The notes under the pieces: model-generated
Database searches by the model: none
Seen by the model: only the letters and a program-made list of their open reading frames with translations
Told to the model about the DNA's origin: nothing
Shown: positions 4,140 to 43,763 of the stretch, in pieces
Layout: the number at the start of each line of letters is the position of its first letter
Position numbering within the stretch: position 1 is the stretch's first letter
Made by a program: the position numbers and the translations under genes
Source of the DNA: Steroidobacteraceae bacterium
GTDB taxonomy: Bacteria > Pseudomonadota > Gammaproteobacteria > Steroidobacterales > Steroidobacteraceae
NCBI GenBank assembly: GCA_035604655.1
Contig: DATNHZ010000051.1
Location: forward strand, 1 to 43,763
DNA length: 43,763 nucleotides
Reading direction: 5' to 3'

Positions 4140-4203
4140 GTCCTGAACATCAATTAGATCAACAACTTACAGTGCGAACCGAGCGGCTGACGCCCACCAT
4201 GAG

Positions 4204-4231: not shown

Positions 4232-4259
4232 TGGGCCCGGCGGGAGTGGCTCCGCCCGG

Positions 4260-5150: not shown

Positions 5151-5256
5151 CGTGACCCCGTCGGTACCACTGGGCGCAGGCATGGACATTAGTATAGTAG
5201 CGCGGTGCCAGTCACGGCCCGGACGCGCACCGGCGCGCCGCGCCACAGGAGACCCC

Positions 5257-6455: not shown

Positions 6456-6649
6456 GATGAGGTCCCCTCGCGATGTCGCGGGATCGTGCATCTTGGCCGC
6501 GGCCCGGCGTCGTGTGCAACTGCCGCGCCCGTTGCTGGCCGCGGCCGCGGAGCGTTCGGTCGCAGCCAGCGCGGCCCGGGGCACGTCGGGCGCCGGCGAC
6601 CAAGACCCGCGCCCTCGCCGATGCCCTGCGACGGGCCTTAGCGGCCCGG

Positions 6650-7633
6650 TCAATCGGCGGCCGCCACCAGCGCCTCGTGGACCTGCCGGTCGGCCCAGCT
6701 CTCTCCGGTCAGCGTCTCCAGAAACCCGCAGTGGCCGCCCCTTTGCGTGACCGTGATGCGAAGCGACGGTGGCCGCGCGAGCCGTGCCAGGTCACGCGCC
6801 GGAATGATCGGATCATCGAGCGCGGCGATGATGCGCGAAGGCACCTCGAGGCCGGCCAGCCGATCACCGACGATGGCGTAGCCGTTCAGATAGCTGGCGA
6901 GATCCGGGAAGTCCGTGTACCTGAGCACCAGATCCTCGGTCATCCGCGTCAGGTTCCGGTGCTCCATCAGCTCGTCGAGATCGTACAGGTCGGGCCACGC
7001 CTTGTGCTTGAGCTGCAGCGAGTTCCGCCACTTGAGCACGAAGTAGTTGCGGTAGATCCACGGGCCGCGCTCCAGGCGCTCAAGGGTGTGCTGCGGATCG
7101 AGCACCGGGCAGATTGCGATGACCTGGCGGAGCCGAATGCCGGCCGCCGGGGCGCGTACCGCGACCCGCAGTGCGAAGTTGCCACCGAGCGAGTGACCGA
7201 CGAGCGCCAGCGCCCGATCCGGGTACAGCCCCTGCACCGAGCGCACCGCACCGACGACCTCGGCGATCCGGCACGAGTGAAAAAGCTCTGGATTGAGGTG
7301 GTGAGTCGGGCCGTGATCGCGCAGGTTCAGGCGCAAGATCTCAAAGCCGCGCGCATACAGGTACTGCCCGGTCGACAGCACGTACTGCGCTTCGGCGCTG
7401 CCTTCCCAGCCGTGCACCAGCAGCACGAGGTTGCGCGCCCCGCCGGGCTGGCCGGCGTAGTGGCCGTGCAGCCGGACCCCGTCACCACAATCGATCAACA
7501 GTTCGCGGCTTGCCGCGATCAATTGCGCCGCGCGTCGCGCGACGTATGCCTGCCGCAGCGGGGAGCTCGGCAGCACCGATTGCAGGTGCCGGTTGGCGAG
7601 CCAGAATGGCGGCTCGAAAGCAATGACTTCCAT
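6650..7633 (-). CDS. Alpha/beta hydrolase (YheT/ABHD-like)
   Basis: LVLLVHGWEGS, the nucleophile elbow GHSLGG and a C-terminal GGHCGF motif. Start at the second Met (MEVIAFEPPFW), 10 bp after the upstream gene's stop. Confidence 0.8.
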   Translation of the reverse strand: MEVIAFEPPFWLANRHLQSVLPSSPLRQAYVARRAAQLIAASRELLIDCGDGVRLHGHYAGQPGGARNLVLLVHGWEGSAEAQYVLSTGQYLYARGFEILRLNLRDHGPTHHLNPELFHSCRIAEVVGAVRSVQGLYPDRALALVGHSLGGNFALRVAVRAPAAGIRLRQVIAICPVLDPQHTLERLERGPWIYRNYFVLKWRNSLQLKHKAWPDLYDLDELMEHRNLTRMTEDLVLRYTDFPDLASYLNGYAIVGDRLAGLEVPSRIIAALDDPIIPARDLARLARPPSLRITVTQRGGHCGFLETLTGESWADRQVHEALVAAAD

Positions 7634-7643
7634 CGGCTCAACT

Positions 7644-8693
7644 TCAGCTGAGGGTGAGCCGCCCACTGCCCGGCAGCGCCTCGACGTAGCGCGAGCCCAT
7701 CAGCCGTGCGGGCGTGATGGCGCCGGCCGGAACTGTGCCCTCCAGCAATCGCGCGACCACTCCGATCGAGGCGTGCGCCGTCACGGTGTAGCCGTTGGCG
7801 GTCACGATGCGCGCTGTTCGGGTCGTGCCGTCCGCAGCGCGCGCTTCGCCCCATACGCGCGTTGGCGTCCTCTCACGCAGCGGCGCATCGGGGCCCGGCA
7901 CGCCGCGGCCGATGCGCCATTTCAGCACGCGTTGCACGGGACCGGAGCCCAGCGCCCAGCGCAGGTACTCGAGCCGCCGGATGCGCGCGAGACCCCGCGG
8001 CGAAATCGGGACGTACACCTCGATGTTCGCAATGCCCGTGGTGCGATAAGCCGTGCTCACGTCTCCCCACGGGATCGTCATCGCGAGCTTCTCGCCGGCG
8101 CCGAAGTCGATGCGGCGGTCCTTGAATCCGAGCGGCACCGGCAACAGCACCGCGTCGCGCCGCACCATGCCGCCGGCACCGAGACCCTCGACGATCGTGC
8201 GCGCCGTGCCGCGGCTCACGGGCGAGGCGTTGTCAAAGCCGAGGGCGAGCTGTGTCGCTCCCGGCAGCGCCTCCTTAAGCGCGAGCGCCACGCAGTCCGT
8301 CGGGACGACGTCGAAACCGACGCCCGGGCACACGGCGATCCCCGCGGCGCGCGCTTCATCGTCCAGAGATGCGGCGAGCTCGAACACCGCGATCTCCCCG
8401 GTGATGTCAAGGTAGTGGGCTCGCGCCGCGAGGCACGCCGCGAGCATCGGGCGGGCGGTCGCCGAGAACGGCCCGGCGCAGTTCAACACGACGGAGATTC
8501 CGGACAGCGCGGCGGCGAGCGCCGCCGGGGAGTCGAGCCCCGCGATTCGCGACTCGAGGCCGAGCTCGCCGGCGAGCGCTTCGAGCGGGGCGCGGGACCG
8601 TCCCGCGAGCACGGGTCGCAGCCCGCGCGCAATTGCCGCGCGCGCGATCAGTTGACCGGAATAGCCGTACGCGCCGTACAGCATCCAGCTCAT
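7644..8693 (-). CDS. Saccharopine dehydrogenase family NAD(P)-binding oxidoreductase
   Basis: Internal start MSWMLYGAYGYSGQLIARAAIARG (Rossmann N-terminus). Family-typical VLNCAGPF and HYLDITGE segments. Confidence 0.75.
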   Translation of the reverse strand: MSWMLYGAYGYSGQLIARAAIARGLRPVLAGRSRAPLEALAGELGLESRIAGLDSPAALAAALSGISVVLNCAGPFSATARPMLAACLAARAHYLDITGEIAVFELAASLDDEARAAGIAVCPGVGFDVVPTDCVALALKEALPGATQLALGFDNASPVSRGTARTIVEGLGAGGMVRRDAVLLPVPLGFKDRRIDFGAGEKLAMTIPWGDVSTAYRTTGIANIEVYVPISPRGLARIRRLEYLRWALGSGPVQRVLKWRIGRGVPGPDAPLRERTPTRVWGEARAADGTTRTARIVTANGYTVTAHASIGVVARLLEGTVPAGAITPARLMGSRYVEALPGSGRLTLS

Positions 8694-8889
8694 GGCACGC
8701 GGGCTGCGGCTGCGTGCCGGGCGCCAACCTGTTCGGGCCCGCGCCGGGGCCGCGACGGCGCGACACACGCTGCGGTCGGATCGGCAACGAGCAGCGCGCG
8801 CTTGGCCGGCACGGGTACCCCCGCGTTCCGTGAAGGGAACGGCAAGCGGCGAGTGTAGCGCACGCCTCCGCGCGCGGCAGTATCGCGAG

Positions 8890-9783
8890 CTAGGCCATGC
8901 GGGCCGCGAGCAGCATGCCGCGGGCTACGTCGACGACACCGCCGCCGACACGTACCTCGATGCCGTGCGAGGTCCGCATTGCGCGCAGGTGCAGCGTCGA
9001 CGGGCGACCAATGCTGACGCCCTGCTCGACGCGGATATCGATCGGGTCGTCGTCGAAGTACCGGTGCTGCACGAGCCAGGACGCGAGGCAGCCATTGCCG
9101 CTGCCGGTCGCCGCGTCCTCCGGCACGCCGTCGTAGTCGACGAACACTCGCGCGGTCAGCTGGTGGCCAGCGCCGCGGGCGCCGGGCGCGAAGGCGATCA
9201 CCGACTTGGCATCGAGACCGCCGACCAGGCTCCGTAGCCCCTCGCGATCGACCCGAATGCGCTCCAGTGCACGCCGTGTGCGGACCGGCACGACCAGATG
9301 CGGAAGTCCGGTCGAGACCTCCTCGATCGGCTGACTGTCGAGATCGGTCGGCGACAGGCCCAGCACGGGAGCGACGAGCTTGCGGGGCAGGCGCCGGCCG
9401 AAGCTCGGGTGGCGCTGGCGCATCCAGTACAGCTCGCCCTCGCGGTTGCGCTCGACGAACACCGGCGTCCGCCCCACCTCCAGCGCCAGCGTCACCCGGT
9501 CGGTACGGCCGCCCAGCAGCACATGCCGGATCACGTGCGCCGTGCCGAGGGTCGGGTGGCCGGCGAAGGGCAGCTCCTCCTGGGGCGTGAAGATCCGTAC
9601 CGGCCAGCCGCCCGCGAGCTGCTCCTCGGCCATCACGAAGGAAGTCTCGGAGAAGTTCATCTCGCGGGCGAACGCCTGCATCTGCCGCGCCGAGAGCCCC
9701 TTGGCTCCGGTGACGACGGCGAGTTGGTTGCCGGCGCACGGGCGGTCGGTGAACACGTCGACGAGATGCAGGCTGCGGGTCAT
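8890..9783 (-). CDS. PhzF family isomerase
   Basis: Internal start MTRSLHLVDVFTDRPCAGNQLAVV..., then MNFSETSF, FAGHPTLGTA and EDAATGSGNGCLASWL, which are typical PhzF motifs. Confidence 0.85.
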   Translation of the reverse strand: MTRSLHLVDVFTDRPCAGNQLAVVTGAKGLSARQMQAFAREMNFSETSFVMAEEQLAGGWPVRIFTPQEELPFAGHPTLGTAHVIRHVLLGGRTDRVTLALEVGRTPVFVERNREGELYWMRQRHPSFGRRLPRKLVAPVLGLSPTDLDSQPIEEVSTGLPHLVVPVRTRRALERIRVDREGLRSLVGGLDAKSVIAFAPGARGAGHQLTARVFVDYDGVPEDAATGSGNGCLASWLVQHRYFDDDPIDIRVEQGVSIGRPSTLHLRAMRTSHGIEVRVGGGVVDVARGMLLAARMA

Positions 9784-9961
9784 GCCGAATCCTCTGACGG
9801 AGTGCGCCTTTCTAGCCCTTTTCGGGGCCCGCGAGCCGCGAACCAGCTCGCGGTTTGCGACCGGCGCGCCGCGCCCGCCGGCGACGGAAGCAGAGCCACG
9901 TCGCACGACTGCAGGCGGGGCGCAGATTGCAGCTGGAGTCGACGCGCCGGTGCGCGGGCCG

Positions 9962-10648
9962 TCACCCCGTCGTACCGGTCACGGGCGCGACCAATTCGGC
10001 GCCCTCGTTGCGCGGACTGTTGACACGGCGGCTAACCGGGTGCGCTCGGAGTGCGACGGCAGGCTCTCCCGTCAGCAGCGCCGCGAGCGCTGCCACGTCT
10101 TCATTGGCCGGATCGAGCCAGGCGGCGTAGGCCTCGGGCGCAATGATCGCCGGCATGCGTGCGTGAATCTCCTGCACGACGCCGCTGGACTCGCGGGTGA
10201 CGATCACGCAGGACTCGAGCGGCTCGCCGTCCTCAAGATCGCGCCATGTCTCCCACAGAGCCGCCATGCCGAACGGCAGGCCCGACGCCGCGTGGACGTA
10301 GTACGGTTGCTTGCCGCCGGTCACGGCACGCCACTCGTAATAGCCGTCGGCAAGGACCAGGCAGCGGCGGCGGCGGAACGCGCTGCGGAACGCCGGCTTC
10401 TCGAGCAGCGTCGCGCCGCGCGCATTGATCATCCGCTGCCCGATTGCGCGGTCCTTGGCCCACGACGGCACGAGCCCCCAGTGAAGGCTCACCAGTTCGC
10501 GCCGGCCGTCGCTGGCGATGCGCACCGCGGGAACATCGGCGGTCGGCGCGATATTCCAGCGCGGCGCGATTTCCGGCGCCTCGCGCGGAAGCGCGAACAG
10601 CTGCACGACCGTCTCGTGTGGGGAGTGAAAGGCAAACCGTCCGCACAT
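9962..10648 (-). CDS. SOS response-associated peptidase (SRAP/YedK family, abasic-site DNA-protein crosslink enzyme)
   Basis: N-terminal MCGRF with catalytic Cys2, then WNIAPT, LHWGLVPSWAKD, INARGATL and ADGYYEW motifs. Confidence 0.9.
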   Translation of the reverse strand: MCGRFAFHSPHETVVQLFALPREAPEIAPRWNIAPTADVPAVRIASDGRRELVSLHWGLVPSWAKDRAIGQRMINARGATLLEKPAFRSAFRRRRCLVLADGYYEWRAVTGGKQPYYVHAASGLPFGMAALWETWRDLEDGEPLESCVIVTRESSGVVQEIHARMPAIIAPEAYAAWLDPANEDVAALAALLTGEPAVALRAHPVSRRVNSPRNEGAELVAPVTGTTG

Positions 10649-13321: not shown

Positions 13322-13363
13322 TATATTTCGAATGAAACCAATTAAAGACGGGAACTCATAGAC

Positions 13364-14011
13364 ATGCGAATCACAGACGATCGTTACACGCGCGACCGCC
13401 AACGGTTCGATCTCGCATTCAGGATGATCCACCACGAGGCACGGACCTGTACGATCCGCATCTGGACCGGGCTCAGCGACGATCGCATCCGCAAGCTGTA
13501 CCGGACTTACGTCGAGAGTCACGGCTCGGGCGTCAAACGCCACCGCGGCAAGTCGCCGACGCAAACGACCTTCTTCCTTCGCAACCGCGAGACCCGCCGC
13601 CACGCCTCGGCGCTTGGCGGGCTGTTTGCAACGCTCGGCCTGTTGCACGACGCGCCCGACCGCGGACCCGGCGGCTCGCTCGGCGGATTGCGCTGGGGCG
13701 AACTGTTCTGCCTCACCTATGAGACCTACGTGGCCTTCTACCAGCCGCACCGCATCTCGTTCGAGCACGCCTGGCACCTGCTGCGATTGCTGGAACGCGA
13801 GGCAGAGCTGAAGACCGGTACCTGCCCGACATGCGATGGCTTCATGGTCGTCGACGTGCTCAGGACCCCGGGTGCCGTCTGCACCTGGTGCGAGAGCGAG
13901 GCCCGCGCGCCGGCGGCGGCCGGCGCTCGCCGCCCTGCGCGTTTCATCCCGCTGGCCGCGCGCCGCGCCATGTCGCTGCGGAGCAGGGCCCTGGCTGCGG
14001 CGGCCGGGTAG
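13364..14011 (+). CDS. FlhC-like zinc-ribbon transcriptional regulator
   Basis: LSDDRIRKLYRTY...RGKSPTQTTFFLRNRETRRHASALGGLF parallels E. coli FlhC LSRGRLIKLYKEL...[23 protein letters not shown] (from memory). The C-terminal CPTC-x16-CTWC matches the FlhC CxxC...CxxC zinc site. Confidence 0.6.
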   Translation: MRITDDRYTRDRQRFDLAFRMIHHEARTCTIRIWTGLSDDRIRKLYRTYVESHGSGVKRHRGKSPTQTTFFLRNRETRRHASALGGLFATLGLLHDAPDRGPGGSLGGLRWGELFCLTYETYVAFYQPHRISFEHAWHLLRLLEREAELKTGTCPTCDGFMVVDVLRTPGAVCTWCESEARAPAAAGARRPARFIPLAARRAMSLRSRALAAAAG

Positions 14012-15925: not shown

Positions 15926-16386
15926 ACGAAGCGCAACACCACGGCGCGGCCGCACCGGAGGACCGGCGCGACGCGCTCCGGCGGATCATCCGCAGCGGCG
16001 AGGTCGGGCGGCAGGCCGAGCTCGTACGGCTGCTGAAGCGCGCCGGCTACGCCGTGACCCAGTCGAGCGTCAGCCGCGACCTGCGCGACCTCGGCGCCGC
16101 CAAGGTCGGCGACCGCTACGTGCTGGCCGAGGATGCTGCCGCACCGGTGGCGGGCCTCAAGGCAGTCGCGGCGTTCGTGCAGGACGTGAGCCCGTCCGGC
16201 CCCAACCTCACGGTCGTGCGTACTACGATCGGCTCCGCGCAGAGCGTGGCGCTCGCCATCGACCGGGCACGCTGGCCGGAGGTCGTCGGGACCTTGTCGG
16301 GCGACGACACGATCTTCATCGCCACCGCGACGCCGCGCGCCCAGCGCCTCGTCCTCGACCGCCTGCGCTCCCTCGAAAGCCGCTGA
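15919..16386 (+). CDS. argR: Arginine repressor ArgR
   Basis: Winged-helix segment QAELVRLLKRAGYAVTQSSVSRDLRDLG and C-terminal oligomerisation/arginine-binding segment GTLSGDDTIFIA. An alternative in-frame ATG at 15898 would add 7 codons. Confidence 0.85.
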   Translation: MQNEAQHHGAAAPEDRRDALRRIIRSGEVGRQAELVRLLKRAGYAVTQSSVSRDLRDLGAAKVGDRYVLAEDAAAPVAGLKAVAAFVQDVSPSGPNLTVVRTTIGSAQSVALAIDRARWPEVVGTLSGDDTIFIATATPRAQRLVLDRLRSLESR

Positions 16387-16395
16387 AGGCCGCCC

Positions 16396-17631
16396 ATGAC
16401 CACCACGACTCAGGGCTCGACGCCCATCCTGCTCGCTTTTTCCGGCGGCCTCGACACCTCGTTCTGCGTGCCGTGGCTGAAGGAGACGTACGGACGGCCA
16501 GTTGTCACGGTCACCATCGATACCGGAGGCATCGACCGCGCGGCCGCGCAGACGCTCGCGGACCGCGCGCGGGCGCTCGGCGCCAGTGCCCATCACCTCG
16601 TGCCCGCCAAGGCCGACTACTTCGAGCGCGTGCTCAAGTACCTGCTGATCGGCAACGCGCGCCGCGGCCAGCTGTACCCGTTCTGCGTCGGCGCCGAGCG
16701 CGTCGTGCAGGCGCAGACGATCGCGGCGATGGCCCACACGCTCGGCGCCACAGCCGTGGCGCACGGCTGCACGGCAGCCGGCAATGACCAGGTACGGTTC
16801 GAGGTCGCGCTGCGCACTCTGGCACCTTCGCTCGAGATCCTGGCGCCGGTGCGCGATCACGCTTTCAAGCGCCCCGACCAGCTCAGGTACCTCGAGGAGC
16901 GCAAGCTGCCGGTACCACCCTTCGGGGCCGCCTATTCGGTTAACCGCGGGCTGTGGGGTGTCACGATTGGCGGCAAGGAGACGCTGACTTCGGCCCACAG
17001 CATCCCGGAGTCGGCGTGGGTGCTGACGCGCGACGCGTTCACGACGCCGCGCGCGCCCGAGCGTCACTCGATCGGCTTCGAGCGGGGCGTCCCGGCAGCG
17101 CTCGACGGCGCAGGACTCGAGCCGGTCGCGCTGATCGAAAGGCTCGAGGAGCTGTCAGCGCCGTTCGGGGTCGGCCGCGGCATTCATCTCGGCGACACGG
17201 TGATCGGCACCAAGGGCCGCGTGGCGTTCGAAGCTCCGGCCGCCGAAGTACTGCTGACCGCACACCGCGAGCTCGAGAAGCTGGTGCTGACCGCCCGGCA
17301 GGTGCGGATCAAGGAACTCGTGACCGCGCCTTACGGCGACCTCGTGCACGAGGGCCAGCACCTCGATCCGGTGTGCCGCGACATCGAGGCCCTGTTGCGC
17401 TCTTCCCAGGAACGCGTGACGGGCGAGGTTACCGTGCTGCTGCGTCCCGGCAGCGTGTTCGTCGAGGGCGTCACTTCGCCGTTCTCGCTGCTGGCCGCAT
17501 CCAAGGGCGTGTACGGCGAGGCCGCCGGTGAATGGACGCCGACCGACGCGCTCGGTTTCTCGAAGATGCTGGCGCTGCCCGGCGTGTTCTACACCCGCGC
17601 GGGCAAGAACCTCACGGATCAGCGGCCGTGA
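16396..17631 (+). CDS. argG: Argininosuccinate synthase
   Basis: N-type ATP-PPase motif AFSGGLDTS, then AHGCTAAGNDQVRFE, and full-length collinearity with ArgG. Confidence 0.95.
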   Translation: MTTTTQGSTPILLAFSGGLDTSFCVPWLKETYGRPVVTVTIDTGGIDRAAAQTLADRARALGASAHHLVPAKADYFERVLKYLLIGNARRGQLYPFCVGAERVVQAQTIAAMAHTLGATAVAHGCTAAGNDQVRFEVALRTLAPSLEILAPVRDHAFKRPDQLRYLEERKLPVPPFGAAYSVNRGLWGVTIGGKETLTSAHSIPESAWVLTRDAFTTPRAPERHSIGFERGVPAALDGAGLEPVALIERLEELSAPFGVGRGIHLGDTVIGTKGRVAFEAPAAEVLLTAHRELEKLVLTARQVRIKELVTAPYGDLVHEGQHLDPVCRDIEALLRSSQERVTGEVTVLLRPGSVFVEGVTSPFSLLAASKGVYGEAAGEWTPTDALGFSKMLALPGVFYTRAGKNLTDQRP

Positions 17632-18707
17632 AATCGGTAGTCGTCGACAAGATCGCCTCGGTCACCCAGGCCTGCGGGCTCGGCCACGAGCTCAGGATCT
17701 CCGAGGACATCCCCTGCGAGGAAGGGGTCGTGCTGGTGGTGGAGGTACTCAGCAACAAGAGCACCTACAACACGCTCGAACTCACGAGCGGACGGATGGC
17801 GAAGGTCGCGAAGGGCGACATCATTGCCGGCGCGCTCGGCCACCGCAAGGCGCTGTTCGGCTATTCCGGGCACGTCCCGCAGTCGGTTCGGCCAGGCGAT
17901 GTCATCCAGCTGCTGAACATGGGTGGCGTGCTCGGGATCTGCGACTCCGTCAACGCCGACAAGGGCCGGCCCTTCGACTGCCGCGTGCTCGGCGTCGTGC
18001 TGCAGTTTCCGTACCTCGGCGAGCGCATCGGCGTCCCGGCCCGGATCGGCTACAAGCCGCTCGACTTCGATGCGCCGCTCGACACGCACGAGGTCCCCGT
18101 GATCGCGCTCGCCGGTACCTGCATGGAGGCCGGCAAGACCGCCGCCGCCTGCGCGATCATCGCGCGCATGCGCCACCGCGGACTCGCCGTGCATGCCTTC
18201 AAGGCCACCGGCGTGTCGCTGCGACGGGACATCCTGGCGATGGAGGATGCCGGCGCACGCAAGAGCATGATCTTCACCGACTTCGGCGTCGGCACGACGA
18301 CGGCGGCGGTCGGCCCCGCACTCACGCGCACGATGCTGACCGAGATGGCGCAGGGCACGCCCGATGTCATCGTGTTCGAGCTCGGCGACGGCCTGCTCGG
18401 CACCTACGGTGTCGAAGCGATCCTCGCATCGCCCGACATTCGCAAGGCGATTACCGGGCTCGTACTGTCGGCCAACGATCCAGTCGCGGCCTGGGGCGGC
18501 GTCAAGCTGCTGCGCGAGAGATTCGGCATCGAACCGACGGTCGTCACCGGCCCGGCGACGGACAATCAGGTCGGCGTCGACATCATCGCCCAGCAGCTCG
18601 GCGTATCGGCGTTCAACGCCATCACCAGCGGCGCGGGGCTCGGCGACCGGGTCATCGAGGCGGCCGGCCTCGCCGATCGCTTCCCGATCAAGCCGACGAC
18701 CGAATGA
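17628..18707 (+). CDS. Uncharacterised P-loop-like protein embedded in the arg operon (function unknown; candidate for a missing arginine-pathway step)
   Basis: GTG start overlaps the argG stop (GTGA, 17628-17631) and the stop overlaps the argC start (ATGA, 18704-18707). 359 aa with a beta-rich N-terminal ~150 aa (EGVVLVVEVLSNKSTYNTLELTSGRMAKVAKGDIIAGALGHRKALFGYSGHVP). GTCMEAGKT at nt 18114-18140 is followed by ...HRGLAVHAFKATG, resembling dethiobiotin-synthetase/CobQ/Pta-N/DUF1611-type P-loops. I recognise no GNAT, ArgJ or M20 motifs. Confidence 0.8.
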   Translation: MKSVVVDKIASVTQACGLGHELRISEDIPCEEGVVLVVEVLSNKSTYNTLELTSGRMAKVAKGDIIAGALGHRKALFGYSGHVPQSVRPGDVIQLLNMGGVLGICDSVNADKGRPFDCRVLGVVLQFPYLGERIGVPARIGYKPLDFDAPLDTHEVPVIALAGTCMEAGKTAAACAIIARMRHRGLAVHAFKATGVSLRRDILAMEDAGARKSMIFTDFGVGTTTAAVGPALTRTMLTEMAQGTPDVIVFELGDGLLGTYGVEAILASPDIRKAITGLVLSANDPVAAWGGVKLLRERFGIEPTVVTGPATDNQVGVDIIAQQLGVSAFNAITSGAGLGDRVIEAAGLADRFPIKPTTE

Positions 18708-19771
18708 GCGCCGTGGACCGCATTCCGACCCTGGTACTCGGCGGCACCGGCTATGTGGCGGGCGAGCTGCTGCGACTGCTGGCGCTGCATCCGCACCTCG
18801 AGCTGCGCGCCGCGGTGTCCGACTCCAAGCCCGGCGTGCGGCTGGCCGCGGCGTTCCCGCACCTCGCACCGGTGTATCCGGAAACGACGTTCGTCGGAGC
18901 CGTGGAGGCGGAGGAGCTGATCGCGCGGTTGCCGGTGAGCGCCGTGCTCGCGGCGGCGCCACACGGCGTGTCGGCGGGCCTGATCGACCGCCTGCTCGCG
19001 AGTGCCGCGGCCGCGGGCACTCGGCCACGTGTGGTCGACATCTCCGCCGACTATCGGTTCGCCGATGCCGCGGCTTACGCCGCGGTCTACGGCCATCCGC
19101 ACGGCGCGCCGGCACGTCTTCGCGATTTCACCTGCGCCGTGCCCGAGCACCTCGCAACGCTCGCGACGCCGCACGTCGCCCATCCCGGCTGCTTCGCAAC
19201 CGCGATGCTGCTCGCAGTCGTGCCGCTGCTCAAGCTCGGCCTCATCGAGCCCGTCTTCTATGTTGCCGGCGTCACCGGCAGCAGCGGCTCCGGCCGCATG
19301 CCGGTCGACGGCACCCACCATCCGCAGCGCCACAGCGACCTGTACTCCTACAGCGCGCTGACGCACCGCCACGCACCCGAAGTCGTGGCAATCGCGCGCT
19401 CGATCACCGGGCGGGAGGCCGAGCTTCACTTCGTGCCACATTCCGGACCCTTCGCCCGCGGCATTCATGCGACCACCCAGGCCCGGCTGATTGCACCGAT
19501 GACGTCCGGGGAGCTCCACGCCGCGCTCGCCGCGTTCTATTCCGGACAGCAGTTCGTCCGCGTCCTCGGCCAGGCGCCACGCCTCAAGGATGTCGTCGCC
19601 AGCAACTACGCGCAGCTATCGGTGAGCACGAGCGGCCGGACGGTCGCCGTCATGAGCGTACTCGACAACCTGACCAAAGGCGCCGCTGGCGGCGCCGTCC
19701 AGTGGATGAACCGCCTGTACGGCTGGCCCGAGGCGACCGGGCTCGCTGCGCCGGCGCCCGGCTGGACCTGA
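18704..19771 (+). CDS. argC: N-acetyl-gamma-glutamyl-phosphate reductase (or the corresponding N-acyl form)
   Basis: MSAVDRIPTLVLGGTGYVAGELLRLL Rossmann N-terminus, the active-site segment HPGCFATA, and a C-terminal DNLTKGAAGGAVQ. Confidence 0.9.
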   Translation: MSAVDRIPTLVLGGTGYVAGELLRLLALHPHLELRAAVSDSKPGVRLAAAFPHLAPVYPETTFVGAVEAEELIARLPVSAVLAAAPHGVSAGLIDRLLASAAAAGTRPRVVDISADYRFADAAAYAAVYGHPHGAPARLRDFTCAVPEHLATLATPHVAHPGCFATAMLLAVVPLLKLGLIEPVFYVAGVTGSSGSGRMPVDGTHHPQRHSDLYSYSALTHRHAPEVVAIARSITGREAELHFVPHSGPFARGIHATTQARLIAPMTSGELHAALAAFYSGQQFVRVLGQAPRLKDVVASNYAQLSVSTSGRTVAVMSVLDNLTKGAAGGAVQWMNRLYGWPEATGLAAPAPGWT

Positions 19772-19799: not shown

Positions 19800-20981
19800 A
19801 TGCCGCATGCAACTGCCAAGGCTCCACCCGCCGCAGCCGCTCCGGCCGCTGGCCATCTGGCGCACGTCTTCGCCCAGTACCCACTCGAGGTTGTGCACGC
19901 CGAGGGCGTGTGGCTGCACACGCGCGACGGGCATCGCGTGCTCGACTGCTACGGTGGCCACGCGGTTGCGGCGCTCGGGTATGGGCATCCGCGCTGGATC
20001 GCGGCCCTCGAGCGCCAGGCGCGCGAGGTGCTGTTCCAGACCAACGCCATCCCGATGGCGGTGAGGGAACGCGCCGCCGCCCGCCTCGTCCGCTTCGCTG
20101 GCCTCGGCCTGGATACGGTGTTCTTCGTCAACTCGGGCGCCGAGGCGAACGAGAACGCGCTGCGGCTCGGGTTCAAGCTGACGGGGCGGCGTGAGGCGGT
20201 GGCACTCGAGCACGGCTGGCACGGCCGCACCGCGGCCGCCGGCGCGGTCACCCACGGCGCGCGCGAGAAATGGTACGGCTTCCCGCAGGCGCCTTTCGAG
20301 GTGAAGTGGGCGTCCCGCACCGACCCCGCGGCAGCGGCTGCGCAGATCGGTGCGGCGACCGCGTGCGTGATCGTCGAGCCCGTCCAAGGCCTCGCGGGCG
20401 CGTTCGACGTGCCAGCCGAGGTGCTTGGCGCACTGCGCCGCCGCTGCACGGAAGTGGGCGCGCTGCTAATTTTCGACGAGGTGCAGTGTGGCATGGGCCG
20501 CACCGGCTGGCCGTTCGGCGCGAACCGCGCGGACGTCACGCCCGACATCCTGACGACGGCCAAGGCACTCGGCGCCGGCTTTCCGGTCTCGGCGATGCTG
20601 CTCGCGCCGACCGTCGCCGCGCAATTGCGGATCGAGGACATGGGCACGACCTTCGGCGGCGCCCCGCTCGCGTGCGCCGTCGTCGAGACCGTCATCGACA
20701 TCATCGAGTCGGAGGGGCTGCTGGAGAACGTGCGCCTCATGTCGGACCTGATCCGCGCGACGTGCGTCGTCGGGCCGGTCACCTCCATCCAGGGCGCGGG
20801 CCTGCTGCTCGGACTCAGGACCAGCCGGCCAGCGAAGGACGTGCAGCGCGAGCTGCTCGCGCGCGATATCTTTGCGGGCACGGCCGCCGATCCCCATATC
20901 GTGCGCCTGCTGCCGCCGTTCACGCTCGCCGAACCGCACGTGGCCGCGCTCGCCGCGGCCCTCCGGAGCCTGCCGGCGTGA
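19800..20981 (+). CDS. argD: Class III aminotransferase, acetylornithine/succinylornithine aminotransferase type
   Basis: GGHAVAALGYGHP, FFVNSGAEANE, LIFDEVQCGMGRTG and TTAKALGAGFP (PLP lysine context). Confidence 0.85.
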   Translation: MPHATAKAPPAAAAPAAGHLAHVFAQYPLEVVHAEGVWLHTRDGHRVLDCYGGHAVAALGYGHPRWIAALERQAREVLFQTNAIPMAVRERAAARLVRFAGLGLDTVFFVNSGAEANENALRLGFKLTGRREAVALEHGWHGRTAAAGAVTHGAREKWYGFPQAPFEVKWASRTDPAAAAAQIGAATACVIVEPVQGLAGAFDVPAEVLGALRRRCTEVGALLIFDEVQCGMGRTGWPFGANRADVTPDILTTAKALGAGFPVSAMLLAPTVAAQLRIEDMGTTFGGAPLACAVVETVIDIIESEGLLENVRLMSDLIRATCVVGPVTSIQGAGLLLGLRTSRPAKDVQRELLARDIFAGTAADPHIVRLLPPFTLAEPHVAALAAALRSLPA

Positions 20982-21979
20982 GCACGCGCCCGGAACGCTT
21001 CGTCGACCTCGCCGACTTCGGTCGCGACGGCGTGCTGGAGCTGCTGGCGCTCGCCGAACGGCTGCAGCGCCAGCCCGAGCCGCGCGCGCTCGACGGTCGC
21101 ATCGTGGGTCTCGTGTTTCTGAATCCATCGCTGCGCACGCTGGCCTCTTTCCAGGCGGCGGTGGCGCGGCTAGGCGGTGCCTCGTTCGTGATCACGCCGG
21201 GTCAGGGCAGCTGGGCACTCGAGACGCGCGTCGGGATTCCGATGAATGGCGCAGCCGCCGAACACATCCGCGAGGGCCTGCCGACGCTCGCCTCGTACTG
21301 CGATGCACTCGGCATTCGCGCCTTCGCCGAAGGCCGCGACCTCGCGGTCGACCTCGCCGACGAGCGCTTCACGGCGATGGCGGCGCTCGTGAACAAGCCG
21401 GTGATCAACATGGAGTCGGCGATCAACCATCCGTGCCAGGCGCTCGCGGACTGGAAGACGCTCGACGACTGCCAGGTGCCGGAGCGCTCGAAGTTTGTGC
21501 TGTCGTGGGTCAACCACCCGCGGGCGCTGCCACTCGCCGTGCCGGCCGCGACGGTGCACATGGCGGCGCTGCGCGGCCACGAGGTCGTGGTGCTGCGGCC
21601 CGAGGGCTACGCACTGCCGCCCGCGGTGATGGCCAAGGCCCGCGCCGCCGCCGCTGGCGGCTCGGTGACGGAGACCGACGACCCCAAGAGCGCGCTGCGG
21701 GGTGCACACGTCGTCTATGCGAAGGAGTGGGGTTCGACTGCTCATTATGGCGATGCCGCCAGGGACGCGGATCTGCGCGGCCGGCTCGATGGCTGGCAGG
21801 TGCGCGATTCGTGGTTCGCGGATGCCGCCGCGGACTGCCGGTTGATGCACTGTCTGCCGGTGCGGCGCAATGTCGCCGTCGCCGACGAGGTGCTGGACGG
21901 CGCTCGCAGCGTCGTGCTCCGCGAGGCACACAATCGTCTGGTGGTGCAGATGGCGGTGCTGCACCGCCTGCTCGCCTGA
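20978..21979 (+). CDS. argF': N-acyl-L-ornithine carbamoyltransferase (ArgF' family: AOTCase/SOTCase)
   Basis: GTG start overlaps the argD stop (GTGA). FLNPSLRT carbamoyl-phosphate motif, INMES..HPCQ, HCLPVRRNV, and overall collinearity with X. campestris AOTCase (from memory) rather than classical OTCase. Confidence 0.85.
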   Translation: MSTRPERFVDLADFGRDGVLELLALAERLQRQPEPRALDGRIVGLVFLNPSLRTLASFQAAVARLGGASFVITPGQGSWALETRVGIPMNGAAAEHIREGLPTLASYCDALGIRAFAEGRDLAVDLADERFTAMAALVNKPVINMESAINHPCQALADWKTLDDCQVPERSKFVLSWVNHPRALPLAVPAATVHMAALRGHEVVVLRPEGYALPPAVMAKARAAAAGGSVTETDDPKSALRGAHVVYAKEWGSTAHYGDAARDADLRGRLDGWQVRDSWFADAAADCRLMHCLPVRRNVAVADEVLDGARSVVLREAHNRLVVQMAVLHRLLA

Positions 21980-22045: not shown

Positions 22046-22984
22046 ATGAGCTACCGCCCCGAACAAGCCGTTGCGATTCGCGCGATGCGCAACGCCGCAC
22101 CTTACATCCGCATGTACAAGGGCAAGGTGTTCATCGTTAAGGTCGGCGGAGCCCTGTTCGGCAATCCGGCTGCGACGCGCTCGCTGATGGAGCAGGTGGC
22201 CATCCTCCACCAGGTCGGCATCCGCGTCGTGCTGGTCCACGGCGGCGGCCCGCAGCTCGACGAGATGCAGCGCTCGCTCGGACTCGAGCCGAAGATGGTC
22301 GACGGGCGGCGAGTAACTGACGACAGGACCATCGACATCACCATCATGGTGCTCAACGGACTGCTGAACACGCGGCTGCTCGGCAATTGCCGGCAACTCG
22401 GCATCAAGGCCGTGGGTTTGTCCGGCATCGACGGCGGCCTGGTGCGCGCGCACCGGCGCCCGCCGGTGCGCGCGGCCGACGGCAGCCTCGTCGACTACGG
22501 CCAGGTCGGCGACATCGAGGGCATCGATCCGGACGTGCTGCAGAGACTGCTCGACGATGGCTACATGCCGGTCGTCAGCCCGCTGTGCTGCGACGCGCAG
22601 GGTACCGTGCTCAACATCAACGCCGACACGGTGGCGGCGAACATCGGTGCCGCGCTCGGTGCCGAAAAGCTGCTGCTGTGCACCGGCGCGGCCGGCATCT
22701 TCGAGGAACTCGACGATCCGTCGACGCTGGTGTCGTACACGGACCTCGCCGGGCTCAAGCGGCTGGAGGCAGGCGGCAGCTTTGCGGACGGCATGATGCC
22801 CAAGGCCGACGCGATCGAGGCCGCGATCCGCGGCGGCGTGCGCCGCGTGCACGTGATCTCTTTCAAGTCGACCGATGCACTGCTCGCCGAGGTGTTCACC
22901 AACGAGGGACTCGGCACGCTGATCGTCGCCGACATCAAGGCGCTGTCGGCCGCTGAGCAGCAGCCGGGGGCCGTCGGGCCATGA
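22046..22984 (+). CDS. argB: Acetylglutamate kinase (kinase domain only, no fused GNAT domain)
   Basis: YIRMYKGKVFIVKVGGALF, VLVHGGGPQ and NINADTVAA motifs. At 312 aa it is not the bifunctional ArgA/B type. Confidence 0.9.
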   Translation: MSYRPEQAVAIRAMRNAAPYIRMYKGKVFIVKVGGALFGNPAATRSLMEQVAILHQVGIRVVLVHGGGPQLDEMQRSLGLEPKMVDGRRVTDDRTIDITIMVLNGLLNTRLLGNCRQLGIKAVGLSGIDGGLVRAHRRPPVRAADGSLVDYGQVGDIEGIDPDVLQRLLDDGYMPVVSPLCCDAQGTVLNINADTVAANIGAALGAEKLLLCTGAAGIFEELDDPSTLVSYTDLAGLKRLEAGGSFADGMMPKADAIEAAIRGGVRRVHVISFKSTDALLAEVFTNEGLGTLIVADIKALSAAEQQPGAVGP

Positions 22985-24168
22985 CGCGCCTGTGGGACCG
23001 GGGCGCGCCGCTCGATGCCCGCGTGCTTGCCTATACGGCCGGCGAGGATCATGCGCTCGACGATCGGCTGGTCGCCTATGACGTCACGGCCTCGATCGCC
23101 CACGCCGAAGGGCTGCACGCGGCCGGGCTGCTGGCTGCGACCGACCTCGCCGCGCTCGTCGCGGCGCTGACCGAGATCGGCGCGGACCATGCCCGCGGCG
23201 GGTGGCGCGTTACGCTCGCCGAGGAGGACGGCCAGACCGCCCTCGAGTCCCGGCTGACCGCGCGCCTCGGCGCCGTCGGCGGCCGCATTCACCTGGGTCG
23301 TTCGCGCAACGACCAGGTGCTCGCCGCACTGCGGCTGTACCTTCGCGATGCGGTCGAGATGCTGCGGTCGGGCGCCGACGCGGTCGCTGCCGCACTCGAT
23401 GCACTGGGCGCGCGGCATCGCGGCATCGTGCTCCCCGGCTATACGCACATGCAGCAGGCGATGCCGAGCAGCGTCGAACTGTGGGCGGCAGGCTTTGCAG
23501 CCGAGCTGCACGACGACGCCGAGGGCTTGCGTCTCGCCCACCGACGCATCGGCAAGAATCCGCTCGGCTCGGCTGCCGGGTACGGCACTCCGGGCCTGCC
23601 GATCGACCGCGACGAGACGATGCGCCGGCTCGGCTTCGCGGCCAACCACGAGCCCGTCACGGCGGTGCAGCTGTCGCGGGGCAAGGCCGAAGCGACTGTG
23701 CTGTTCGAGATCGCGCTGCTGATGACTGACCTCGGGCGACTGGCGTGTGATCTGCTGCTGTTCTACACGCACGAGTTCGCGTACGTGATGCTGCCCGAGG
23801 CCTTCACTACCGGGTCGTCGATCATGCCGCAGAAGCGCAACCCCGACGTGTTCGAGCTGATCCGCGGCCGCTCGGCGACCGCGCAGGGCTGTCTGACCGA
23901 GGCACTCGGCATCATCGGCAAGCTGCCGAGCGGCTACCATCGCGACCTGCAGCTCTTGAAGCTGCCGCTGTTTCGCGGCATCGACCTCGCCGCCCAGACA
24001 CTCGACATCCTGCCGGCGGCACTCGAGGGTGTCCGCTTCCGTCCCGAGAACATCCGTCTCGATCCGGCAATTTATGCAGCGGAGCGCGCCAACCGGCTGG
24101 TCGTCGCCGAAGGGATACCGTTTCGCGAGGCGTACCGGCGCGTGGCGGCGGAGCTCGCGAACAAATAG
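22981..24168 (+). CDS. argH: Argininosuccinate lyase (short form)
   Basis: ATGA overlap with argB. GRSRNDQV, GYTHMQQAMP and the fumarate-lyase signature GSSIMPQKRNPD. Confidence 0.95.
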   Translation: MTRLWDRGAPLDARVLAYTAGEDHALDDRLVAYDVTASIAHAEGLHAAGLLAATDLAALVAALTEIGADHARGGWRVTLAEEDGQTALESRLTARLGAVGGRIHLGRSRNDQVLAALRLYLRDAVEMLRSGADAVAAALDALGARHRGIVLPGYTHMQQAMPSSVELWAAGFAAELHDDAEGLRLAHRRIGKNPLGSAAGYGTPGLPIDRDETMRRLGFAANHEPVTAVQLSRGKAEATVLFEIALLMTDLGRLACDLLLFYTHEFAYVMLPEAFTTGSSIMPQKRNPDVFELIRGRSATAQGCLTEALGIIGKLPSGYHRDLQLLKLPLFRGIDLAAQTLDILPAALEGVRFRPENIRLDPAIYAAERANRLVVAEGIPFREAYRRVAAELANK

Positions 24169-24176: not shown

Positions 24177-24461
24177 TTACTCGGCGAGACCGAGGGCGAA
24201 CCCGGCCTCGATCTCCGAATTACGGTAGACGCGAAACGAGATCAACGTCTCCGATTCGACGATGCCAGGCACCTGGTGCATGCGCTGGCTGACGATGTCT
24301 GCGAGATCCTCGTTGCGCGGCGCCCGGACGATCGCCACCAGGTCATAGCGCCCCGCGACCGAGTAGACCTCGGTGACCCCATCGAGCTCCGCGAGCGAGA
24401 CGGCCAGCTGGTTGATTTCCTGCGTCTTGGCCTTGATCAGCACGACGGCGGTCACGGACAT
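24177..24461 (-). CDS. Stand-alone Lrp/AsnC ligand-binding (RAM) domain protein, no DNA-binding domain
   Basis: 94 aa: VTAVVLIKAKTQEINQLAVSLAELDGVTEVYSVAGRYDLVAIVRAPRNEDLADIVSQRMHQVPGIVESETLISF, a typical AsnC_trans_reg fold pattern. Convergent with argH, with an 8-bp gap. Confidence 0.8.
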   Translation of the reverse strand: MSVTAVVLIKAKTQEINQLAVSLAELDGVTEVYSVAGRYDLVAIVRAPRNEDLADIVSQRMHQVPGIVESETLISFRVYRNSEIEAGFALGLAE

Positions 24462-24611
24462 GGTGCACCTCGGTACGTGAACTCAACTGACGGTCGCAAG
24501 CCCGGACCGCTCTTGCAACGGGCATCGCCCCCACCCGGCGCCGGGCGGGCCGTCGTGATCATAGCGAGTCGGCTCCCCGGGCGGCAGCTGCGGGCAGTCG
24601 GCACCGGTTGC

Positions 24612-25493
24612 TCATGCGCCGAGCAGCCGCGCGTGGAACCGCAGGTGATCGGCGATGAACGTGCTGATGAAGTAGTAGCCATGGTCGTAGCCCGGCTGCA
24701 TCCGCAGCTCGATTGCCTGCCCGGACCGGCGGCCGGCGTCGGTGAGGGAGCAAGGCTTCAGCTGCTCGTCGAGAAACTTGTCGGCCGTCCCCTGATCGAT
24801 CAGGATCGTGCCGCCACGCGCCCGGCGCGCGACGAGCACGCTCGCGTCGTAGTCGGCCCATCGATCCCGGTCGGAGCCGAGGTAGCCAGTGAATGCCTTC
24901 TCGCCCCACGGGCAGCTGATCGGCGCGGCGATCGGCGCGAAGGCTGACACGGAGCGGTAGCGGTCGGGATTCCTGAGTGCCGCGACGAGCGCGCCGTGGC
25001 CTCCCATCGAGTGCCCGAAGATGCCCTGGGCGTCGGCGCTGGCCGGAAAGTGCTTGACGATCACCGCCGGCAATTCGCGGGTCACGTAGCTGTACATCCG
25101 GTAGTGATCCGACCACGGGGCCGCGGTCGCATCGACATAGAAACCGGCGCCGAGGCCGAAGTCCCAGCTCGCGTCATCGCCCGGCAGCCGCGCCCCGCGC
25201 GGGCTCGTGTCCGGGGCGACCAGCATCAGGCCGAGCGTCGCCGCGAGGCGCTGCGCGCCGGCCTTCATCATGAACGTCTCTTCGGTGCAGGTCAGGCCGG
25301 CGAGGTAGTACAGCACCGGCACCGGCCCGGTCTTCGCCTGCGGTGGCGTGAACACCGCGAACCGCATCGGCGAGCGTGTCTCGGCCGACTCGTGCAGGTG
25401 GAAGCTGACGACCCCGCCGAAACACGCATGGCTGCTGAGCGTCGCCGGCGCCGCGGCCGCCGGCGCGAGCGCCGATGAGGCTGCCTCGCTCAA
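24612..25493 (-). CDS. fghA: S-formylglutathione hydrolase (esterase D)
   Basis: [25 protein letters not shown] and YDHGYYFI. The start is a TTG overlapping the gfa stop (TTGA), so it is somewhat uncertain. Confidence 0.9.
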
Positions 25494-26068
25494 GCCTTCA
25501 GCACGCCTTTCGCCTTCGCCGTGTGCGTCGCGATGGCATCCATCAGCGCCGGCGACAGGCAGTCGTAGGGCTCGAGCTTCAGCTCCTTGAGCCGCGCGCG
25601 GACGGCAGCCATCTGCTCAGGCTTAGCCGCGCCGGCCTCGATGATCGAGGAGACGAACGCCGCGAACTCCGGAGCGGCCCACCCCTTGTCCTTCGAGAGT
25701 TCCACGTGCACGAAGTCGAGCCCGTAGAACGGGTGGGCCTTGTTCTCGATGCGCCCGAACAGGTGCACGCCGCAGCCGCTGCAGGCGTGGCGCTGGATCG
25801 CCGCGGCCGGGTCGACGACCTTGAGCTTGTGGCCGTTCGCCGTGACCGTCAGCTTGTCCTTGGGCACGACCGCGACCACTGAAAACATCGCGCCCTTGGG
25901 CTTCCAGCACTTGGTGCAGCCACAGGCGTGATTGTGGGCGACGTTGCCCTTGATCGTGACGGTCACGGGGTCCTTAGAGCAGTGGCACGTCAGCGTGCCG
26001 CCGGCGAAGTTGGCCGTGCCGGGCCGCACACCGTTGTCGACGGACGGATGGATTGAAATCGTGGTCAT
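25490..26068 (-). CDS. gfa: S-(hydroxymethyl)glutathione synthase (glutathione-dependent formaldehyde-activating enzyme)
   Basis: Internal start [13 protein letters not shown]. Cys-rich zinc sites ([36 protein letters not shown]) are typical of Gfa. Confidence 0.9.
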
Positions 26069-26087
26069 CGCAGCCCCCTCTGGTTGG

Positions 26088-27197
26088 TTAGTAGGTGACG
26101 ACGCTGCGGATGGACTCACCCGCATGCATCAGGTCGAACGCGGTGTTGATCTCATCGAGCGGCATCACGTGCGTGATCAACGGGTCGATCGCGATCTTCT
26201 TGTCCATGTACCAGTCGACGATCCTCGGCACGTCGGTGCGACCCCGGGCGCCACCGAACGCCGTGCCCTTCCAGACCCGGCCGGTGACCAGCTGGAACGG
26301 CCGGGTCTTGATCTCCTGGCCGGCGCCGGCGACACCGATGATCACCGACACGCCCCAGCCGCGATGGCAGCACTCGAGCGCCTGACGCATCAGGTCGACG
26401 TTGCCGACGCATTCGAAGCTGTAGTCCGCCCCGCCGTCGGTGAGCGCCACGAGATGCTGCACCAGATCGCCCTCGACCTCCTTCGGGTTCACGAACTGCG
26501 TCATGCCGAACTTCTCGGCGAGCGGCCGGCGCTTTGGATTGACGTCGACGCCTATGATCCTGTTCGCACCGACCAGCCGCGCACCCTGGATCACGTTCAA
26601 CCCGATGCCGCCGAGACCGAATACGACCACATTCGCGCCCGCTTCCACCTTGGCCGTGTTGATCACGGCCCCGATGCCGGTCGTGACGCCGCAGCCGATG
26701 TAGCAGACCTTGTCGAACGGCGCGTCGTCGCGGATCTTGGCTACCGCGATCTCCGGCAGCACCGTGTAGTTGGAGAACGTCGAGCAGCCCATGTAGTGGT
26801 GCACTTTCTCGCCGCCGATCGAGAAGCGGCTGGTGCCGTCGGGCATCACGCCCTTGCCCTGGGTCGCGCGTATCGCAGTGCACAGGTTGGTCTTGCGCGA
26901 GGTGCAGCTCTTGCACTGCCGGCACTCGGGCGTATAGAGAGGGATCACGTGGTCGCCCTTTCTCACCGCTGCGACCCCCGGACCCACGTCGACGACGATC
27001 CCCGCCCCCTCGTGCCCGAAGATGACGGGGAACAGGCCCTCGGGGTCGGCGCCCGAGCGCGTGAACTCATCCGTGTGGCAGATGCCGGTGGCCTTGAGCT
27101 CCACCAGCACCTCGCCCGCCTTCGGGCCGTCGAGATCGACAGTCACGATCTCGAGCGGCTTGCCGGCGGCGTAGGCAATCGCGGCGCGGGTCTTCAT
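26088..27197 (-). CDS. adhC: S-(hydroxymethyl)glutathione dehydrogenase / class III alcohol dehydrogenase
   Basis: [46 protein letters not shown]...GHEGAGIV...VFGLGGIGL. Confidence 0.95.
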
Positions 27198-27234
27198 CGA
27201 TCAGGTCCTCTTGGTAGGTCGAATAGCGAGCGGG

Positions 27235-33711: not shown

Positions 33712-33719
33712 GTTGATCC

Positions 33720-41656: not shown

Positions 41657-43763
<2,107 letters not shown>

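Follow-up and report, generated by a model that had tools for sequence, protein, structure and literature searches.

The closest described counterparts of the locus studied here come from Bacteroides and from Steroidobacter denitrificans. Bacteroides carries an argR-GNAT-argG-argC-argD cluster, a succinyl-specific ArgF' and an M20 desuccinylase (PMC7311316). For S. denitrificans, Price et al. ('Novel enzymes for amino acid biosynthesis in diverse bacteria and archaea: GapMind 2026', bioRxiv 10.1101/2024.10.14.618325, version 2026-07-02) predicted in their Appendix 2 that ACG33_RS14135, a hypothetical protein encoded in the arginine cluster, serves as an N-succinylglutamate synthase. According to this preprint, S. 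denitrificans grows in minimal medium, yet none of its proteins resembles a characterised ArgA, and ArgE is missing from the whole genome as well. The homologues of ACG33_RS14135 lie virtually always in arginine operons, some of them beside argE candidates, and 90% of the linked ArgF' proteins carry A, P, S or V at position 92 (bioRxiv 10.1101/2024.10.14.618325). We analysed a stretch of 43,763 nucleotides (43.8 kb, hereafter the window) from a Steroidobacteraceae bacterium, contig DATNHZ010000051.1, in which a 359-residue protein, here called X, is encoded at 17628 to 18707 on the plus strand within an operon of the order argR-argG-X-argC-argD-argF'-argB-argH. We infer a catalytic activity for X, which is probably an N-succinyl-L-glutamate synthase carrying out the first committed step of arginine biosynthesis.

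X and ACG33_RS14135 (A0A127FCT3) come from the same bacterial family and hold an identical position in the arginine cluster, from which we infer that they are orthologues. They are also alike in the confinement of their homologues to arginine operons, the presence of argE near some homologues and the non-acidic residue at position 92 of ArgF'. Both the literature and GapMind already contain the role proposed for X; we reached the same conclusion independently, but it had been published earlier, and its conceptual novelty is low. The preprint offers no domain analysis of ACG33_RS14135, takes no position on the acyl donor and mentions neither the fusion nor the minimal clusters nor the GNAT-containing operon. 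Our additions are the domain analysis, the finding of an N-terminal domain that lacks a solved analogue, the small clusters X-argC-argB and X-argC-argD-argB, an X-ArgB fusion and a conservation ranking. We also add two cautions, which concern a GNAT gene in an archaeal operon (locus L086) and the weak structural link to DgcN, described as a D-glutamate N-acetyltransferase (bioRxiv 10.1101/2024.10.14.618325). The genes of the operon in the window are as follows.

15934 to 16386, plus strand: argR, arginine repressor, first in the cluster, start codon approximate (PF01316, 53 bits; PF02863, 64 bits)
16396 to 17631, plus strand: argG, argininosuccinate synthase, 411 residues (TIGR00032, 284 bits, cut-off 268; PF00764; PF20979)
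17628 to 18707, plus strand: X, 359 residues, with a predicted all-beta N-terminal domain (about 1 to 150) and a predicted dethiobiotin-synthetase-like P-loop C-terminal domain (about 158 to 345)
18704 to 19771, plus strand: argC (TIGR01850, 286 bits), directly downstream of X in nearly all loci examined
19800 to 20981, plus strand: argD, N-acylornithine aminotransferase, 393 residues (PF00202, Aminotran_3, 254 bits)
20978 to 21979, plus strand: argF', N-acylornithine carbamoyltransferase, 333 residues (NF003384, 319 bits, cut-off 288)
22046 to 22984, plus strand: argB, N-acylglutamate kinase, 312 residues (TIGR00761, 206 bits), kinase domain only, without a GNAT fusion
22981 to 24168, plus strand: argH, argininosuccinate lyase, short form, 395 residues (TIGR00838, 290 bits)

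X is a real gene. Its GC content at third codon positions is 0.87, like that of the neighbouring genes, in a window of 70% GC. Its GTG start overlaps the argG stop by 4 bp (GTGA, 17628-17631) and its stop overlaps the argC ATG by 4 bp (ATGA, 18704-18707); the same kind of overlap joins argD to argF' (GTGA, 20978-20981) and argB to argH (ATGA, 22981-22984). This gene order and the four overlaps had been described in the initial annotation of the window, and all of them were confirmed. More than 100 homologues of 357 to 361 residues begin with the same residues, MKS(V/I)VVDKI, and we therefore take the GTG at 17628 as the start of X and not the ATG at 17532 farther upstream. The nearest relatives of the window are Steroidobacteraceae (Gammaproteobacteria) genomes and metagenome-assembled genomes with 76 to 90% identity in X; the Peristeroidobacter and Steroidobacter sp. 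loci stand at 77 to 78%. The position of argR upstream of argG is kept in related loci. In 38 of 46 related Steroidobacteraceae loci, X is better conserved than the seven other operon proteins; its median identity is 79%, compared to 59 to 76% for the others.

The operon lacks recognisable genes for two steps of the pathway. No GNAT, ArgJ or M20 domain was found by Pfam searches of most larger open reading frames in the window, tblastn with M20 and GNAT queries revealed no such gene there, and a classical ArgA is likewise absent from the 43.8 kb. The initial annotation had remarked on the lack of ArgA/ArgJ and ArgE and had described ArgB as a kinase without a GNAT fusion, both of which our searches bear out. 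Indeed, the match of ArgB to the ArgA models is confined to the kinase part (positions 6 to 292 of 441), and the length of ArgB is conserved among the relatives. The best NCBIfam matches of ArgD are acetylornithine transaminase models, all under their cut-offs, and NF003384, the model matched by ArgF', describes N-acetylornithine carbamoyltransferase. Within and around the operon, the window and the Steroidobacteraceae loci L001 to L080 have no M20 ArgE-like deacylase; weak M20 matches occur only in L002 and L021, about 6 to 10 kb downstream. An N-succinylcitrulline desuccinylase is thus still missing from the Steroidobacteraceae operons by sequence, and we propose that it is encoded elsewhere. 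The ArgH of the window has no C-terminal ASL_C2 region, and TIGR00838 covers profile positions 22 to 386 of 455. This short ArgH is conserved across the Steroidobacteraceae loci and is also seen in the archaeal locus L086 (14210-15412, 400 residues, Lyase_1 only), and other X-carrying operons have a full-length ArgH of 459 to 463 residues.

The acyl group used by this pathway can be predicted from ArgF'. The best match of the window ArgF' in the Protein Data Bank (PDB) was 3l02, the E92A mutant of the Xanthomonas campestris N-acetylornithine transcarbamylase, and the window protein itself has an alanine at the Glu92 position (motif MNGAA-A-EHI, around residue 94). S, P, A or V at this position goes with a preference for succinylornithine, according to the passages of PMC7311316 and bioRxiv 10.1101/2024.10.14.618325 that cite Shi et al. 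2007. Among 66 loci, the X-linked ArgF' has alanine there in 64 and threonine in two; in eight further X-linked ArgF' proteins, alanine occurs three times and threonine five times, and glutamate was never found in either set. The window ArgF' is predicted to be succinyl-specific, and the arginine pathway here probably runs on succinylated intermediates, as in Bacteroidetes. Because the linked ArgF' proteins carry alanine or threonine and never glutamate, the predicted product of X is N-succinyl-L-glutamate. An acetyl-based pathway is less probable, given the alanine at the specificity position. In the proposed scheme, L-glutamate would be N-acylated by X, most probably with a succinyl group, and the resulting N-succinyl-L-glutamate would be converted to arginine via ArgB, ArgC, ArgD, ArgF', a desuccinylase encoded elsewhere, ArgG and ArgH. 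X would have replaced the usual GNAT-type ArgA or ArgJ through non-orthologous displacement.

We compared the gene neighbourhoods of X across lineages. X has relatives in Acidobacteriota, Planctomycetota, Gammaproteobacteria and one archaeal metagenome-assembled genome. The full argR-argG-X-argC-argD-argF'-argB-argH order is present in 49 of the 80 best related genome loci, and the others are mostly truncated or sub-clusters. In about nine Steroidobacteraceae loci, tamAB is followed by an operon of three genes, X-argC-argB. In four loci of a Steroidobacteraceae sub-lineage (L025, L033, L054 and L057, about 4200-9970), a pair of open reading frames of about 590 to 600 and 1234 to 1260 residues lies directly upstream of X-argC-argB; the window has a TamA/TamB-like pair at 31942-37415 on the minus strand (597 and 1232 residues), assigned from size and position. 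The distant relatives of X (30 to 50% identity) stand in an arginine cluster, directly before argC, in 10 of the 12 lineages looked up. In a set of 80 metagenome loci chosen around a consensus-like member of the family, three layouts recur, and X is directly followed by argC in all loci with downstream sequence except one. The operons of one layout (layout A) have no M20 gene, whereas an M20 ArgE/DapE-type gene shares the operon with X in L082, L086, L090 and eight metagenome loci. The ArgE/DapE deacylase models score best for the M20 proteins of L082 and L086, and that of L090 was assigned by Pfam only. The arrangements in the distant lineages are as follows.

L081, L084, L088 and L089: argR-argG-X-argC-argD-argF'-argB
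L082 and L090: argG-X-argC-argD-argF'-argB-M20-argH
L086, archaeal metagenome-assembled genome GCA_016192905.1 (labelled Woesearchaeota): GNAT-argG-X-argC-argD-argF'-argB-M20-argH-pyrB
L087: X-argC-argD-argB
L091: argG-X-argC
L092: X alone, outside an arginine cluster
L093 and L094: X-ArgB fusion

The operons of L082 and L090 contain a recognisable gene for every step but the acylation of glutamate, which leaves X as the only gene without an assigned step. Since only that step is without a gene in operons of this type, X is the candidate for it. The minimal clusters, among which X-argC-argD-argB was found in L087, L095 and L096, pair X with ArgB, ArgC and ArgD, and together with the X-ArgB fusion they tie X to the early steps. 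The fusion is an open reading frame of about 673 residues (L093, 8860-10881; L094, about 5936-7957), which joins a full-length X to a full-length ArgB (AA_kinase). Its called start is about 47 codons late, and the X part extends upstream to a full N-terminus. The reading frame is continuous in contigs of two JGI samples that differ by one nucleotide in 1881. The fusion belongs to a single lineage and adjoins a divergently transcribed arginase-family gene. Apparent X-ArgC fusions were also encountered. Two of them (P0168 and P0103) were rejected as frameshift garbage, and a third (P0405; L175, 9001-11166, 721 residues) was rejected as evidence, coming from a long-read contig of 4x coverage. It may be an assembly artefact, because one indel in the ATGA overlap is enough to produce such a fusion. 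Overall, homologues of X are found mostly within arginine clusters and next to argC, with L092 as an exception.

We searched for the family of X with profile and structure comparisons. X scored above no Pfam or NCBIfam threshold, and neither collection gave a confident match to an unrelated family. The best profile match was to the P-loop domain of PF07755 (DUF1611), at residues 148 to 196, with 17.5 bits against a cut-off of 25; DUF1611_N had no Pfam match in X. Peptidase_M20 and M20_dimer domains gave no match, and no GNAT (PF00583 and similar) or ArgJ (PF01960) domain was detected in X even at expect values (E) up to 10, nor among 46 members of the family, in line with the absence of M20, GNAT and ArgJ motifs noted in the initial annotation. 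Sequence searches against PDB chains, with X alone and with a 63-sequence family profile, returned no true match to a solved structure, and leucine-rich repeat matches were judged spurious. The family profile did show a marginal match to the P-loop GTDTEVGKT of a dethiobiotin synthetase, extending to the lysine. A word-indexed search found at least 6953 database proteins of the family, an exhaustive search 1496 clusters at 50% identity, and all sources label the homologues 'hypothetical protein'. Among the 46 members, sub-threshold matches were found to CbiA (26 of 46), DUF1611_C (25 of 46), MobB (23 of 46), BioD and CobB/Q, and weak matches also to Mur-type ligases; the best E value for PF07755 was 1.3e-5. 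X therefore forms part of a distinct, undescribed family and is no nearer to DUF1611 than to the other BioD-like groups. The link to DUF1611 and DgcN drawn in the initial annotation is therefore retained as a remote resemblance of the P-loop domain and not as family membership, given the sub-threshold score and the different N-terminal domain.

The conserved residues were mapped on an alignment of 46 members with 29 to 49% identity. The motifs of the C-terminal domain are located as follows.

18114 to 18140, plus strand: Walker A P-loop GTCMEAGKT, residues 163 to 171, followed by FKATG (K192)
18201 to 18203, plus strand: Lys192, invariant in both family alignments, at the position of Lys37 of the Escherichia coli dethiobiotin synthetase
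18378 to 18392, plus strand: ELGDG, with E251, G253 and G255, Walker B-like; E251 and G253 are invariant

The P-loop was thus found where the initial annotation had placed it. G169, K170 and T171 are invariant in the family in two alignments, and K192, G195, E251, G253 and G308 are further invariant residues in the 46-member alignment. In the N-terminal half, G33, R73, P84 and G100 are invariant. Lys192 aligns with Lys37 of E. coli dethiobiotin synthetase, which we take to be catalytic, and ELGDG presumably corresponds to the EGAGG motif of that enzyme. The cysteine of GTCM was considered as a catalytic nucleophile and rejected, as distant members have S, G, D, A or I at this position.

An AlphaFold2 model of X, built with the 63-sequence alignment, had a predicted local distance difference test score (pLDDT) of 94.4 and a predicted template modelling score of 0.90. 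It shows an all-beta N-terminal domain (residues 1 to about 150) and an alpha/beta P-loop domain; the beta-rich N-terminal region had been recognised from the sequence before. A Foldseek search of this model against the PDB matched X through the C-terminal domain only. The top matches were the dethiobiotin synthetases 3of5 and 1dts, with E of about 1e-5 and target-normalised template modelling (TM) scores of 0.55 to 0.62, and the set formed by these two with 2qmo, HypB and signal recognition particle (SRP) GTPases had E values of 1e-5 to 2e-4, Foldseek probability 1.00 and TM scores of 0.5 to 0.62. FleN was also among the matches, after the dethiobiotin synthetases. The C-terminal domain is thus predicted to adopt a SIMIBI-class P-loop fold of the dethiobiotin-synthetase-like kind, and the match is modest. 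These structural matches and the weak profile matches uphold the earlier placement of X as an uncharacterised P-loop protein in the neighbourhood of dethiobiotin synthetase, CobQ and DUF1611. The N-terminal domain modelled alone (pLDDT 89) showed no analogue in the PDB, the best Foldseek match having E of 0.58 and a TM score of at most 0.24.

The acyl donor of X could be of two kinds. Succinyl-coenzyme A (succinyl-CoA), by analogy with DgcN, is a plausible donor, if somewhat short of a probable one; the P-loop residues of X could then bind the phosphates of succinyl-CoA. The use of ATP and free succinate through an acyl phosphate, as in the reactions of the nearest structural relatives, seems rather unlikely and yet deserves attention. 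In this variant of the proposed synthase, X would be an ATP-dependent, CoA-independent succinate:glutamate ligase: the Walker A lysine and threonine, Lys192 and Glu251 could bind Mg-ATP and activate succinate, the carboxylate would be phosphorylated as in dethiobiotin synthetase, CobB and CobQ, and the amine of glutamate would attack. Dethiobiotin synthetases are the nearest structural matches of X, and the family profile has a single match to a PDB sequence, that of the dethiobiotin synthetase P-loop, in an alignment that reaches the catalytic lysine. Lys170, Thr171, Lys192 and Glu251 are invariant across relatives of 30% identity, and the weak family matches include CbiA, CobB, CobQ, BioD and Mur-type ligases. 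However, the conserved P-loop residues might equally bind the phosphates of CoA, and the literature names a single characterised remote relative, DgcN, which it describes as an acetyltransferase. If the ligase variant were true, the succinate released by the desuccinylase would be re-attached, and the acyl cycle would differ mechanistically from those of ArgA and ArgJ.

Several observations weigh against a synthase role. The preprint marks the role of ACG33_RS14135 as a prediction only, and although its homologues were not found to co-occur with ArgA, the comparison was made with the P. aeruginosa-type ArgA only and not with ArgJ or short GNATs (bioRxiv 10.1101/2024.10.14.618325). The homologue in L092 (P0350, GCA_964624115.1, 9001-10032) lies outside any arginine cluster; its neighbours are a PrsW protease gene on one side and SMC and threonyl-tRNA synthetase genes on the other. 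The analogy with DgcN, on which the assumed CoA donor is based, is weak, as PF07755 stays below its threshold, no DgcN model was matched, the N-terminal domain differs and the DgcN structure 7XRJ is outside the 50 best Foldseek matches. In L086, the operon that holds X also has a GNAT gene (6193-6666, plus strand, 157 residues) immediately before argG. In NCBIfam this GNAT scores best with PRK07757 (70 bits), with the GNAT portion of the ArgH-ArgA fusion and with the short mycobacterial N-acetylglutamate synthase (NAGS), all NAGS-type GNAT domains and all under cut-off, and no homologue of it was found nearby in the other 173 of the 174 loci. This operon seems to offer a candidate for each step in addition to X, and X is either redundant in L086 or has a different role there. 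The two may be redundant, as ArgA and ArgJ coexist in many bacteria; the GNAT beside X also suggests that there is space for an accessory role of X. In such a role X would not be catalytic but would assist ArgC or ArgB in a nucleotide-dependent way, for instance by regulating them or by protecting or channelling the labile N-acyl-glutamyl phosphate as a scaffold, and an unlinked GNAT or ArgJ would carry out the first step. The placement of X immediately upstream of argC in nearly every locus, its fusion to ArgB in one lineage and its coexistence with the GNAT in L086 would all suit a partner, and many SIMIBI proteins are regulators or chaperones, with HypB, FleN and SRP GTPases among the Foldseek matches. 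We nevertheless consider it improbable. We know of no such ArgB or ArgC partner in other organisms, and the N-terminal domain is rich in invariant Gly, Arg, Glu, Asp and Tyr residues, which suggests a small-molecule site. In addition, no protein of S. denitrificans resembles a characterised ArgA, and homologues of X never co-occur with classical ArgA (bioRxiv 10.1101/2024.10.14.618325).

Because ArgE is lacking both in the window operon and in S. denitrificans, X might instead be the missing deacylase, hydrolysing N-acylcitrulline or N-acylornithine, and the initial annotation had left the choice between glutamate N-acyltransferase and deacylase open. According to that annotation, an argE gene lies at about the position of X in Xanthomonas-type clusters. 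X is, however, hardly a deacylase, because M20 deacylase genes are found in the same operons as X; moreover, its fold is that of a P-loop nucleoside triphosphatase and not of a hydrolase, and the minimal operons group it with argB and argC rather than with argF' and argG. Only the acyltransferase half of that proposal is thus carried forward, with the gene context across phyla and the preprint in its favour. Scarcely more credible is an ArgJ-like recycling, in which X would move the succinyl group from N-succinylcitrulline or N-succinylornithine to glutamate and so fill the ArgA and ArgE gaps at once. Both steps are missing in S. denitrificans and in the window, and the operons of layout A lack an M20 gene, but related operons do encode a hydrolase, and the conserved Walker motifs argue for the use of a nucleotide or CoA. 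To our knowledge, transacylation of this kind has no precedent in a P-loop fold.

If X is an N-succinyl-L-glutamate synthase, it would be a further independent invention of N-acylglutamate synthase, with a fold unrelated to GNAT or ArgJ, and the succinyl variant of the pathway would extend well beyond Bacteroidetes. Steroidobacteraceae and many X-carrying Acidobacteriota and Planctomycetota have no recognisable first enzyme of arginine biosynthesis, and without one they are wrongly scored as arginine auxotrophs in metabolic reconstructions.

The window also contains genes outside the arginine operon.

13346 to 14011, plus strand: a 221-residue protein with a partial FlhC match (PF05280, 38 bits) that covers the C-terminal zinc-binding part only; no flagellar genes lie near it, and NADH pyrophosphatase (NUDIX) and TANGO2-family genes come next
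24177 to 24482: a small AsnC-type ligand-binding protein
24612 to 27200, minus strand, convergent with argH: a formaldehyde detoxification set of an S-formylglutathione-hydrolase-like esterase (PF00756), a GFA family protein and a zinc alcohol dehydrogenase
41570 to 43762, plus strand, running off the end of the window: a large MtrC/OmcA-like outer-membrane multihaem cytochrome (PF22113, PF22112, several CXXCH motifs), which suggests extracellular electron transfer

Comparison with known enzymes showed that X shares features with three groups. DgcN (DUF1611, PF07755) likewise N-acylates glutamate, and its P-loop domain belongs to the same broad BioD/CobQ-like group as that of X. It reportedly uses acetyl-CoA. 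Weak matches to PF07755 were obtained for 25 of the 46 family members, all of them under threshold, and no NCBIfam DgcN model was matched. The DUF1611_N domain is Rossmann-like, whereas the N-terminal domain of X is all-beta in the model. A Foldseek comparison of ACG33_RS14135 with DgcN (PDB 7XRJ) gave a weak match, with E of 1.4e-7 and a root mean square deviation of 5.6 Å (bioRxiv 10.1101/2024.10.14.618325); in our search, the 50 best PDB matches of X (top E 1e-5) contained neither 7XRJ nor any other DUF1611/DgcN entry, and the model and server of the preprint differed from ours. The role of DgcN is catabolic and concerns D-glutamate, as opposed to the proposed biosynthetic role of X with L-glutamate and a succinyl group.

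BioD and the CobB/CobQ amide synthases, which catalyse ATP-dependent C-N bond formation, share with X the GTxxxxGKT P-loop, a lysine after strand 2 and an E-G-x-G-G-like motif. X differs from them in its low sequence identity (11 to 14%) and its extra beta domain of 150 residues, and its use of ATP is putative. The GNAT-type N-acylglutamate synthases, namely classical ArgA, Xanthomonas ArgA/B and BT3761/Cabys_1732, have the same reaction as that proposed for X and the same kind of operon; among them, BT3761/Cabys_1732 of Bacteroidetes is the probable N-succinylglutamate synthase of the GNAT type. The fold of X is unrelated to that of these GNAT synthases, whose domain was not found in it. Nevertheless, the X-ArgB fusion parallels the kinase-acyltransferase fusions of ArgA, with the domain order reversed.

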